DNA of 63,914 nt, the filler included, from Anaerolineae bacterium (lineage in GTDB: Bacteria > Chloroflexota > Anaerolineae > Epilineales > Epilineaceae), in NCBI GenBank assembly GCA_029262755.1. It is 7 parts of 7 records of this genome, joined end to end, with 100 filler letters (N's around TTAATTAATTAA, not from the genome) between each part and the next. Parts side by side here need not be neighbours in the genome. Positions count along the whole stretch, not along the records: positions 27,075 to 34,410 come from JAJCYU010000334.1; 6 more parts are not named here. One strand, 5' to 3'. The stretch's first letter is position 1. Every line of letters starts with the position of its first letter. The notes under the pieces are model-generated. The model did no database searches and was not told the DNA's origin. It saw only the letters and a list, made by a program, of their open reading frames with translations. This document shows positions 16,945 to 34,510 of this stretch, piece by piece. Made by a program: the position numbers and the translations under genes.

Positions 16945-19176
16945 GACGCCGGCTTGCAGGGGCACATCTACCTCCGAAGCAACCTCGCCTTCTGAATCGC
17001 TAGCGCCGTGCGATCCGCTCCCGAGCTGTGATTCGATCGCGCCGTCCGACCCTCGCGCCGCGCCCGATCCATCGCCCGATCCATCGCCCGGTGTCGCCGG
17101 ATCCGTGTGCCAGCCGTTGATCTCCGCGAGCACCGCCTCCATCTGCGGCTCCCCGTGCTTCGTCTCGGGGTACCACCAGTCCAGCGCGCGCAGGGGCGCA
17201 TCGCGCGGGTCGTCGCTCGCCTCCGCCTTGGCCTTGAGACGCAGCGCGAGCTGGTGGATGAACCAGGCCTCGCTGCGCGCATCTCCGGGCGGCGACACGG
17301 CCTTTTCGCGCCATTGCAGCATGCGCTGCGTCTGCGTGAACGAGCCCTCCTTCTCGGCGTGGCCGGCCGCGGCCATCAAGAAGACCTCCGTTTCGATGTC
17401 CTCCGTCACGAGCTCGCCGCGCTCGATCTCGGGCGCGTCTCGCCAAAACGTGGCCGTCTCAATCTCGACCAGGTCGCGCACGACGAGCCACTTGAGCTTG
17501 GCTAAAGCCTTGCGCTCGAAGCGCGCATGCTGGGCGCCGACTGCCGGGTTCTGACCCATCACGAACAGCCCCTCCACCAGGCCGTCCATCATCTCCGCGA
17601 AGTAGGCGAAGTGGCTGTGGTCGCGCGTGATACGCGGCAAGAGCGCGAAGCCCCAGTCGTTGTCGGCGCGGGCATACCGGCCGTACCAGGCCTTCAGGAG
17701 GCTCACCATGTACTTGGGCGTGTGGTGCCACCAACCCGCGGTGGGGGCGTGCTTGTCATAATACTGCGCAAGCGTCCCGTCTTCTTTCGCCGGCATGGGC
17801 AGGTAGCCGGGCAGGTTGTTGTAGAGCGTCGGGATGTCGGTCGAGCCCTGGATCGAGGCGTGGCCGCGCAGCGCCAAGATACCGCCGCCCGGGCGGCCGA
17901 TGTTGCCAAGCAGCAATTGGAGGATGGCGGCCGCACGGATGACCTGGACGCCCTTCGAGTGATGGGTCCAGCCCACGGCGTAGCACAGGGCGGACGTGCG
18001 ATCCCGTCCGCTGTTGGTCATCAGCGCTTCGGCGATGCGTGCCTGATCGGCCTCCGATACCCCGCTTACCCGCGCGACCATCTCCGGCGTGTAGCGGGCG
18101 AAGTGGCGGCGCAGCACCTGGAGCACGCAGCGCTCGTCCTCCATGGTGGGATCGCGCTCCGGGGTCGCGAGGCCCCCGGCGTACATCCAGCTTGCATCGT
18201 CGTAGCGCCGTGTTACGGGGTCCCAGCCGCTGAACAGGCCGTCCAGGTCCTCCGTGTCGCGGAAGTCTTCGCCGACGATGTAGGTCGCGTTGGTGTAGTG
18301 GCGCACGTACTCCTCGAAGTAGCGGCCGCTCTCGATCACCGTGCGGATGATTCCGCCCAGCAGCGCGATGTCGCCGCCGGCCCGGATCGGCGCCCAGATG
18401 TCGGCCATCGCGCTGGTGCGGCTGAAGCGCGGATCGACGTGGATGATCACGGCGCCGCGTTCCTTGGCCTTCATGACCCACTGGAAGCCGACGGGGTGCG
18501 CCTCGGCCATCGAGCTGCCTTGGATGAGGATGCAGTCGGCGTTGGCCAGATCCTGCTGCGCGGTCGTAGCCCCGCCGCGCCCTAACGTGGTGCCCAGACC
18601 GGGCACCGTGGAGGCGTGTCAGATGCGCGCCTGATTGCTCACCGGCACGATGCCCAGACCGCCGGTGAAGAGCTTCTTGATCAGGTAATTCTCTTCGTTG
18701 TCGAGCGTCGCACCGCCAAGATGGGCGATGTTCGTGGTGTGGCCCACCGCGTGTCCGTCTTCCTCCTCGACCCACCGCGTGCGCCGGCTGTTCCACACCA
18801 GCTCCGCGATGCGGTCCATCGCCGCTTCCAGTGGCACCTGCGTCCACGTGCGCGCTCCCGGCGCCCGGTGCAGGATGGTCGTCAGCCGTCCTTCGTGGGT
18901 GAGCAGCTGGTGGCTCGCTGCGCCCTTCGGGCAGAGCGCGCCGCCGCTTACGATGCTCTCCGGATCCCCTTCGATGGCCACCAGCTTGTCGTCGCGGTGA
19001 TGCACGAGCTGCCCGCAGCCGACCGCGCAGTAGGGGCACACCGAACGCGCCGTCTTCGTGCCGCTGGTGCGGGCGTGTAGCGTGCGCGTACGCTGTGTCA
19101 TCGACGCCGGACCGCTGGGATCCGCGCCGCGCAGCTGTTGGATGAGCGGCCAGTTGGCGAGCCAAGACGGCGACAT
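16945..19176 (-). CDS. fdnG: Formate dehydrogenase alpha subunit (Mo/W-bisPGD), selenoprotein with Sec at TGA 18619-18621; 3'-truncated
   Basis: CPYCAVGC...LCPKG [4Fe-4S] motif. SNQARI-TGA-HASTVPGLG matches FdnG NQARVUHGPTV. Also AEAHPVGF and LRGHASIQGSTD. Confidence 0.93.
18589..18607 (-). promoter_or_regulatory. SECIS element of formate dehydrogenase
   Basis: GGUGCCC-GGUCU-GGGCACC hairpin starting 11 nt after the UGA, like E. coli fdhF/fdnG SECIS. Confidence 0.9.
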
Positions 19177-33605: not shown

Positions 33606-33682
33606 GTCCCCGTAGCTCAGTGGATTAGAGCGTCTGGTTGCGGTCCAGAAGGTCGCAGGTTCGAGTCCTGCCGGGGATACCA
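33606..33682 (+). tRNA. tRNA-Arg(GCG)
   Basis: Anticodon arm TCTGG-TTGCGGT-CCAGA, GGTTCGAGTCC T-arm, encoded CCA. Confidence 0.9.
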
Positions 33683-33688
33683 TCCTTT

Positions 33689-33776
33689 GCCGAGGTGGCG
33701 GAATTGGCAGACGCGCGGCGTTCAGGACGCCGTGGGCTTAACGCCCGTGCGAGTTCGAGTCTCGCCCTCGGCACCA
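33689..33776 (+). tRNA. tRNA-Leu(CAG)
   Basis: CGGCG-TTCAGGA-CGCCG anticodon arm, long variable arm, CCA. Confidence 0.93.
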
Positions 33777-33816
33777 GGACACACCCTGTAGGAAGGCACG
33801 CTGGGGTGTGCAGTAA

Positions 33817-33902
<86 letters not shown>

Positions 33903-33911
33903 TTGCACCTT

Positions 33912-34341
33912 GACAGGGCATCCGGGAATCCGCCGCTGGCCTTCGGGCTAGAGGAACCTCCCAACTGCCACGTACATGTGGACCTCACGAAACCGGAAGT
34001 GAGGGCGCGTTGCCCGTGAGGGCGCGTGACGACAGCCGCAACAGAGAGAAGACCTGTCGGACCCGCGCATTGTGACGCGGGCGGCAAGGGTGAAAGCTCG
34101 CCGGGAAGGCGAGGGTGCGCTTCGGAGACGGGCGCACGCAGGTGAGGCGGCCACGGCAGCAAGGCGGGTGGGCCGGGCTCGTACTTGGGGCAGCGACCTC
34201 AAGCGATGTTCGGTCCCGTCGCAGCGGACGCCGGCGAGGTCGGGTAACACCCGTCAAGCTAGGCATCCGCCAGTGCCGTTCGCGGCGCTGAGATAGATGG
34301 CGGACTCGACAGAATTGGGGGTATGACCCCGATGCCCTGTT
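33912..34341 (+). ncRNA. rnpB: RNase P RNA with divergent P4/P5
   Basis: P1 ACAGGGCATC/GATGCCCTGT, P2 TCCGCC/GGCGGA, P3 UUCG hairpin, and conserved blocks GAGGAA, GCAACAGAGAG, AAGGGTGAAA, GCAAG, AGATAGATG, ACAGAA in canonical order. Confidence 0.9.
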
Positions 34342-34347
34342 CGGTGC

Positions 34348-34410
34348 GCCCCCGTAGCTCAGAGGATAGAGCACCGGCCTCCGGAGCCGGGTGCGCAGGT
34401 TCGAGTCCTG
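34348..34410 (+). tRNA. tRNA-Arg(CCG), 3'-truncated by gap
   Basis: CCGGC-CTCCGGA-GCCGG anticodon arm, GGTTCGAGTCC. Confidence 0.9.
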
Positions 34411-34510
34411 NNNNNNNNNNNNNNNNNNNNNNNNNNNNNNNNNNNNNNNNNNNNTTAATTAATTAANNNNNNNNNNNNNNNNNNNNNNNNNNNNNNNNNN
34501 NNNNNNNNNN

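Follow-up and report, generated by a model that had tools for sequence, protein, structure and literature searches.

Helix P4 is regarded as the invariant heart of RNase P, and an RNase P RNA gene in which this helix has been rewritten raises the question of whether its product can still serve the cell. Such a gene (rnpB) lies in a 63,914-nucleotide (nt) stretch of DNA from an uncultured Anaerolineae bacterium (the window), which consists of contigs of a metagenome-assembled genome (MAG) joined by N / TTAATTAATTAA linkers. Judging by sequence comparison, we consider it very likely that window positions 33916-34337 encode a functional RNase P RNA of class A descent, the only RNA subunit of a ribonucleoprotein enzyme. 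The RNA appears to belong to a large Anaerolineae sublineage in which three P4 pairs near the bulged U would have been replaced by other Watson-Crick or wobble pairs.

The gene is full length and is bounded by the two strands of P1:

33916..34337, plus strand: rnpB, with P1 formed by its 5'-terminal GGGCAUC and its 3'-terminal GAUGCCC

With permissive filters, the Rfam class A model RF00010 aligned end to end (model positions 1-367 of 367) to 33918-34339, which was the sole RNase P-like match within the window, and class A was the best member of the RNase P clan for this RNA. P1, P2, P3, both P4 strands, P5 and P7-P14 are visible in that alignment, and the conserved junction motifs ACAGAGAGAAGACC, GGGUGAAA, AGCAAGG, GAGAUAGAUGG and ACAGAA all align to consensus. 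The score was 37.4 bits against a gathering cut-off of 100 (E = 3.3e-10 in a local scan and 3.7e-08 over the whole window). An Rfam scan of the whole window at the gathering cut-off reported seven tRNAs and did not report an RNase P RNA, in keeping with the suggestion of the initial annotation of this locus that motif searches could miss it. The P4 swaps are a reason why standard annotation overlooks the gene, which lies about 70 nt from the end of its host contig (27075-34410; 7,336 nt, 66% GC).

The two strands of P4 were identified from the sequence and from the pair counts given below:

33951..33964, plus strand: junction J3/4 and P4 5' strand, GAGGAA-CC-U-CCCAA, GAGGAACCUCCCAA (C67 = 33957, C68 = 33958, bulged U69 = 33959, C72 = 33962, A73-A74 = 33963-64)
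34309..34323, plus strand: junction J2/4 and P4 3' strand, ACAGAA-UUGGG-GG-UA, ACAGAAUUGGGGGUA, pairing with 33956-33964

We take the 3' partners to be positions 353-360. The 5' positions follow the E. coli numbering (A67, G68, U69) used in PMC9433436. So aligned, P4 of the window RNA comprises 8 base pairs (bp) and a single bulged U (33959). Relative to the Rfam class A P4 consensus (GAGGAAAGUCCGGg ... ACAGAACCCGGCUUA), five pairs depart and every one is still Watson-Crick, with the bulged U retained: 67:359 changes from A-U to C-G, 68:358 and 72:355 each from G-C to C-G, and 73:354 and 74:353 each from G-C to A-U. All of this is as the initial annotation described it, from the strands and their coordinates to the five compensated swaps. 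Where class A has A67, G68/C358, U359 and G72/C355, the window RNA has C67, C68/G358, G359 and C72/G355. Since pairs 73 and 74 are variable in canonical relatives as well, only those at 67, 68 and 72 are unusual.

The rewritten helix is not peculiar to the window. A scan of prokaryotes, with one genome for each species, looked for the CC-form 5' strand accompanied by two class A motifs, and so at 67/68 for CC only. It returned 27 loci: four in Chloroflexota/Anaerolineae MAGs, 18 of an Elusimicrobia type, two in Fibrobacterota MAGs and three false (neither L001 nor L016 matches RNase P RNA, and in L005, from Streptomyces, the match falls in P3 sequence, ahead of the real strand, which is canonical). 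RF00010 scores, obtained for 20 of the 27, were 121.7, 105, 96.8 and 89.2 bits for the Anaerolineae loci, 146-215 for 11 Elusimicrobia-type loci and 257-270 for Fibrobacterota. In 61 genomes near genome G003, the scores were bimodal, with 28 at 194-325 bits and 23 at 65-129 bits. All 28 high scorers carry the canonical 5' strand, and the 26 uncut ones also match the canonical 3' strand; all 23 low scorers carry GAGGAA-C[U/C]-U-CCCGA with UCGGG-[A/G]G-UA, and none of the 61 genomes holds a canonical and a variant RNA together. Sixteen of the 23 variant RNAs fall below the Rfam cut-off and seven pass. The other 10 genomes had no real RF00010 match. Extreme divergence was entertained for G005-G009 and set aside: G007 and G009 hold contig-end-cut copies, and the remaining three yielded nothing to BLAST. 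No RNase P RNA was found in G010, G016, G025, G029 and G033, for which incomplete assembly is as good an explanation as absence.

When 401 Anaerolineae genomes were searched by BLAST with the window RNA, 93 gave matches at E <= 1e-6, and ten of these hold near-full-length relatives of 71-81% identity. Among the 32 loci returned, both P4 strands could be seen in 29, all of them variant; the other three are cut by contig ends. In a 401-genome sample of the phylum, a 16-mer for the variant strand occurred in 44 genomes (a reversed-pattern control in two) and the canonical 16-mer in 278, a tally that includes the unpublished genomes G558, G654, G722 and G437. Ten doubtful variant-pattern regions, from the apparent dual-pattern genomes G465, G658, G656 and G624 and the double-variant genomes G591 and G676, were fetched, and nine are not RNase P RNA; with seven genomes removed, about 37 were left. 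Six of these (G003, G044, G051, G056, G078 and G676) have a confirmed RNase P RNA, the remaining 31 being counted by pattern, and none of the approximately 37 has the canonical pattern.

Aligned divergent Anaerolineae RNAs, the window included, have the core C67-G359, Y68-R358, C72-G355 without exception (50 of 50). Thus, aligning the RNA with other Chloroflexota rnpB genes, as the initial annotation advised, revealed a clade trait. Its reading of a functional but divergent ribozyme stands in so far as this is an RNase P RNA and very probably a functional one; the uniqueness that it implied does not, given the shared core and the CC/GG combination in Elusimicrobium-type RNAs. The window RNA is an ordinary member of the variant clade with one private pair change: A73-U354 is found in it alone among the Anaerolineae variants, and C68-G358 is common to it and six others. 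A metagenome scan for the window-specific strand CCCAACUGCC gave two matches, neither homologous to RNase P RNA.

We then asked whether the two strands of P4 change together. The alignment comprised 91 RNAs, namely the 50 Anaerolineae variants (window included), 24 canonical RNAs of the same class, 15 of Elusimicrobia type and two from Fibrobacterota, with these counts:

66:360: A-U 89
67:359: C-G 67, A-U 24
68:358: U-G 28, G-C 24, C-G 22, U-A 15, C-A 2
U69 bulge: U 91
70:357: C-G 91
71:356: C-G 90
72:355: C-G 50, G-C 39, G-U 2
73:354: G-C 67, A-U 20, C-G 3
74:353: A-U 76, G-C 14, C-G 1

P4 positions were paired in 99.2% of cells. Shuffling lowered this to 78.2%, with none of 500 shuffles reaching the real value, and sliding the 3' strand by one to three columns lowered it to 20-55%. 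The 50 Anaerolineae variants divide at 68:358 into 28 with U-G, 15 with U-A and seven with C-G; C72-G355 is limited to these variants and present in all 50. One row (L043) is misaligned at the P4 3' strand. The pattern failed to match ten loci, of which L041 and L048 are canonical, L008, L021 and L022 fully paired and the remaining five truncated at contig ends. RNAalifold, applied to 10 sequences of the window's subclade, predicted 107 pairs; double compensatory changes affect 35 of these, in P8, P9, P12, P14 and a UAACA-loop hairpin. It recovered P4 unaided; it misassigned P2, P5, P7 and P11, because pseudoknots are beyond it.

The base closing P3, just before GAGGAA, was also seen to differ: among 28 canonical strands it is a pyrimidine (U or C) in 27 and G in one, but the variants of Anaerolineae and of Elusimicrobia type have A or G there, and the two Fibrobacterota strands U. 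This is a further correlated difference next to the active site.

How could a helix so altered still support catalysis? According to PMC9433436 and PMC3488217, the active-site metal is bound by phosphate oxygens of A67 and G68 and by O4 of U69, the T. maritima equivalents of A67 and G68 being A50 and G51. Because the ligands at 67 and 68 belong to the backbone, pair swaps there would keep the helix geometry, the backbone ligands and the bulged U. With the A-form helix and bulged U retained, catalysis would proceed as in ordinary bacterial RNase P. A study by Kaye et al. reportedly points to the same view. Eukaryotic nuclear P RNAs also differ at positions 67 and 68. As for the global fold, either of two contacts, L8-P4 or L18-P8, suffices alone to hold the domains together; L18-P8 was broken in the laboratory by changing GNRA to UNCG in L18, and L8-P4, which needs the AAC in L8, by mutating that sequence (PMC8457005). 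The window RNA keeps GAAAC in L8, so that L8-P4 together with further contacts may carry the fold.

Outside P4, the following elements were located by cmscan alignment and by comparison with relatives:

33937..33950, plus strand: P3, a short 5-bp hairpin with a UUCG loop (cmscan alignment; length variable in relatives)
33965..33969, plus strand: P5 5' strand CUGCC, partner GGCAG at 34155-34159 (cmscan alignment)
33983..34004, plus strand: P8 hairpin, its 10-nt L8 loop containing GAAAC (covarying P8 pairs, UA5/CG5 and AU5/GC5)
34088..34139, plus strand: GGGUGAAA junction, P13 (loop GGGAA) and P14 (cmscan, subclade alignment, compensatory changes in P14)
34160..34271, plus strand: expanded P15-P17 region (alignments; poorly aligned to RF00010)
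34272..34289, plus strand: P18 hairpin, with a UUCG loop at 34279-34282 where class A has GNRA

P13 and P14 both align to the class A model, and their loops differ from the GUAAGAG and GNRA-type consensus of the clade and class A. P5, which the initial annotation took to covary, has one swapped pair relative to the CUCCC/GGGAG of the wider clade, and CUGCC/GGCAG is invariant in the subclade, as is GAAAC in L8. Its UUCG loop in P18 was seen where it had been placed, and its expanded P15-P17 region was borne out: about 110 nt separate AGCAAGG from P18, including a 47-nt hairpin (34170-34216) whose length varies across relatives and a conserved, covarying UAACA-loop hairpin at about 34239-34255. 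With UUCG in place of a GNRA loop, P18 lacks the loop that docks on P8 in class A.

The window and its nine full-length relatives form a subclade with the P13 loop GGGAA, an altered P14 and varied, non-GNRA P18 loops; P18 itself is missing in L011, L014 and L019. Seven listed subclade RNAs score 66.6, 64.3, 52.4, 42.9, 41.8, 41.0 and 37.7 bits with RF00010, and the closest relative (G231) 25.7 bits in a partial match. The Rfam cut-off misses the whole subclade. Its scores of 26-67 bits result from the altered L13/L14, the non-GNRA L18 and the enlarged P15-P17 together with P4. Most members of the variant clade have an extra hairpin right after the P5 5' strand, in the position of type B P5.1; carriers include L002, L011, L063, L066, L073, L081 and L112, and the window, L084 and L077 are without it, as is the subclade at large with the exception of L092.

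Are these RNAs then still class A? The window RNA resembles the E. coli M1 type (RF00010) in its helix order (P1-P5, P7-P14, P15-P18), in the P4 pseudoknot with its bulged U, in the junction motifs GAGGAA, ACAGARA, GGGUGAAA, AGCAAGG, GAGAUAGAUGG and ACAGAA, and in the RnpA partner of its relatives, and differs from it in the bases at 67:359, 68:358 and 72:355, in L13 and L14, in the UUCG of L18 and in the enlarged P15-P17. One may instead view the Anaerolineae RNAs as a distinct structural class beside types A, B and C, with a rebuilt metal-binding core (a U-G wobble or C-G by the bulged U, five consecutive G on the 3' strand and a flipped pair below), the L18-P8 strut lost and a P5.1-position hairpin or an enlarged P15-P17 in its stead. 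We hold this to be possible but rather doubtful; if it were true, the core could differ in metal-ion affinity or preference, and nature would have supplied a test of what catalysis requires of P4.

Type C RNAs, from the same phylum, likewise depart from class A and are missed by ordinary tools. In PMC7191817 and PMC4919922, however, type C is characterized by the added helices P10.1 and P15.2 in Thermomicrobium roseum and Sphaerobacter thermophilus, two Thermomicrobia, and is not defined by P4; the window's clade belongs to Anaerolineae. Most members of that clade have instead the P5.1-position hairpin, which the window itself is without. The Elusimicrobium-type RNAs (L003-L027) share C-G at both 67:359 and 68:358, the bulged U and the presence of rnpA, but retain G72-C355, are otherwise ordinary and pass Rfam at 146-215 bits. 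Of 151 Elusimicrobiota genomes sampled, 88 match the AG/AC/CG/CC pattern, with CC in five (G777, G779, G896, G906 and G930, which include an Elusimicrobium minutum MAG) and AG in almost all the rest; G779 has two CC matches and one AG match. The CC/GG swap of Elusimicrobiota is of independent origin and a minority state there. The two Fibrobacterota MAG loci (L004, L009) are otherwise canonical at 257-270 bits, with C67-G359 and, adjoining the catalytic bulged U, a non-standard C-A at 68:358. Among Elusimicrobia-type and Fibrobacterota CC carriers, rnpA was present in all five genomes checked. Bacteria of the candidate phyla radiation also have real rnpB genes below the Rfam thresholds, found after these were lowered; in the passages of PMC8172020 consulted, they differ from the present RNAs in having peripheral helices missing or extended (P12-P14, P16-P18, the UGG motif), with no P4 change reported.

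A full-text literature search found no account of natural bacterial RNase P RNAs with changes at P4 pairs 67/68/72, nor of an Anaerolineae-type RNase P RNA. Such RNAs may well be present, uncommented, in the Rfam alignments, the RNase P Database and the sequence sets underlying P finder. The initial annotation had asked whether the variant is already common in Rfam: because Elusimicrobium-type RNAs (146-215 bits) and seven of the 23 variant RNAs near G003 pass the cut-off, such P4 helices are probably inside its automatic hit sets. What appears to be new here is a clade-wide P4 variant of RNase P RNA.

The gene could also be a decaying or inactive relic, with tRNA 5' ends processed by a second, canonical rnpB or by HARP. 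A relic would fit the very low Rfam score of 37.4 bits, the alteration of the most conserved helix and the non-GNRA L18, and the searches for alternatives covered relatives rather than the window's own genome. Against this, all P4 changes are compensated, 68:358 covaries within the clade, and 35 helix pairs show double changes. The check for other RNase P genes suggested in the initial annotation was run on five subclade genomes, in each of which the variant RNA was the only RF00010 match (25.7-64.3 bits, all five under the cut-off; an extra 16-bit match in G298 was noise) and no canonical RNA was found. The class B model RF00011 matched none of the five at E <= 1, and TIGR03875, which we take to be the HARP family, was above its cut-off in none of them. 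Intact rnpA (PF00825) was above its cut-off in all five as an open frame of 130-150 aa, and rnpA would have no role absent the RNA. Relatives with megabase contigs, such as G078 and G152, are without an alternative RNase P, and variant and canonical patterns never occurred in one genome after false matches were removed. We therefore regard a relic as very improbable.

Several points nevertheless weigh against reading the window RNA as the sole, working RNase P RNA of its cell. Its L18 is UUCG, a change of the kind that lowers activity in other P RNAs (PMC8457005); such a loop breaks a contact, so the fold may depend on contacts beyond those identified. Its RNase P activity is argued from comparison of sequences, and the rnpA, HARP and second-rnpB checks concern relatives of the organism. 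The A73-U354 form occurs in no other full-length variant found. Rows of the P4 counts were picked by a pattern requiring two anchor motifs, although none was lost for poor pairing, and the shuffle controls overstate significance because the sequences are related; the slid control and the three 68:358 pair types inside one clade are stronger evidence than the shuffles. A weak hint of transcription comes from RNA-library contigs of two metatranscriptome studies, which are about 92-97% identical to the window over 33946-34047 and 33946-34165 and show no listed difference in the stretch 33951-33964; they end before the P4 3' strand, and DNA carry-over is possible. Positions 34265-34341 are covered in none of the four runs compared, which favours neither view. 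Finally, the bin is heterogeneous: one contig (55701-61084) has 42% GC, as against 63-70% in the other six, and is likely contamination.

The neighbours of rnpB bear on a further alternative. The gene lies among tRNA genes on the same strand:

33606..33902, plus strand: tRNA-Arg(GCG), tRNA-Leu(CAG) and tRNA-Leu(GAG) (ARAGORN), the last ending 13 nt upstream of P1
34348..34411, plus strand: tRNA with anticodon loop CCG (Arg), cut by the contig end (tRNA model match 34355-34411; N run from 34412), starting about 10 nt after the P1 3' strand

All seven relatives compared (loci L084-L091) have tRNA-Arg(GCG), Leu(CAG), Leu(GAG), rnpB, Arg(CCG) and Met in this order and on a single strand, each 3.4-kb locus holding an array of 14-18 tRNA genes, and the window order is identical up to the contig end. 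The full order runs Arg-Leu-Leu-rnpB-Arg-Met-Glu-Gln-Ser-Cys-Phe-Asn-Ile-His-Ala-Gly-Pro and beyond. The RNA and its substrates are probably made on one transcript, and the spacers of about 10-13 nt suggest that rnpB would be released by the enzymes of tRNA 3' and 5' processing, RNase P included. We found no description of rnpB inside tRNA arrays in the literature.

A dense tRNA array would suit an auxiliary rnpB carried, along with that array, by a phage or other mobile element, and a contig of the IMG/VR viral collection (L132) does hold a variant-type rnpB. We judge this highly improbable. The variant gene is the sole rnpB in all five relatives; the array order is kept across RNAs only 71-81% identical; each anticodon occurs once or twice, as in a housekeeping tRNA set; and the contig flanks are cellular, encoding a DsbA-like thioredoxin, an enolase-superfamily enzyme and an O-antigen ligase-like protein. 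Scans of viral collections gave five pattern matches, of which four are chance and only L132 is real. In L132, the last 824 nt of a 22,484-nt viral-classed contig hold the rnpB and then tRNA-Leu(UAG); this contig end is probably host DNA flanking a provirus that had inserted close to the tRNA/rnpB cluster.

An assembly or binning artefact mimicking a rewritten P4 is scarcely credible: although the window joins contigs by artificial linkers, the RNA stops 70 nt short of a contig end and the complete RNA is present only in the probable source sample, DNA contigs from two further studies cover 33912-34264 (about 96% identity) and 33969-34152, both P4 strands changed in a matched way unlike sequencing errors, and the core rewrite is common to fifty related RNAs of other assemblies.

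Three further observations concern other loci. In G078, at the slot of the relatives' tRNA-Gln(CUG) (L090:919-992), ARAGORN called a tRNA with a four-base anticodon (cctg) and an enlarged loop; the call may be mistaken, reflect a sequencing error or mark a genuinely unusual tRNA. A Chloroflexota MAG (L002) has a tmRNA gene (893-1251) and a variant rnpB (1278-1688) 27 nt apart on the same strand. Elsewhere in the window, 18563-18624 (minus strand) matches SECIS_3 below threshold (47.1 bits against a cut-off of 63, E 1.1e-07) inside a long open frame, possibly a selenoprotein gene.

The preferred reading, a working class A-derived RNase P RNA with a clade-wide change of P4, has consequences for the enzyme and for annotation. 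A large natural lineage with three P4 pairs exchanged, but with the helix and its bulged U retained, supports the structure-based notion that the ligands at 67 and 68 are backbone groups and that base identity there is dispensable. Rfam annotation misses most of the lineage (16 of the 23 variant RNAs near G003 and all five subclade genomes lie below the cut-off); with rnpB missed, these genomes will appear to lack an essential gene and rnpB-based completeness checks will fail, which a clade-specific covariance model would cure. The variant clade offers ready natural mutants for kinetic and metal-rescue work on RNase P.

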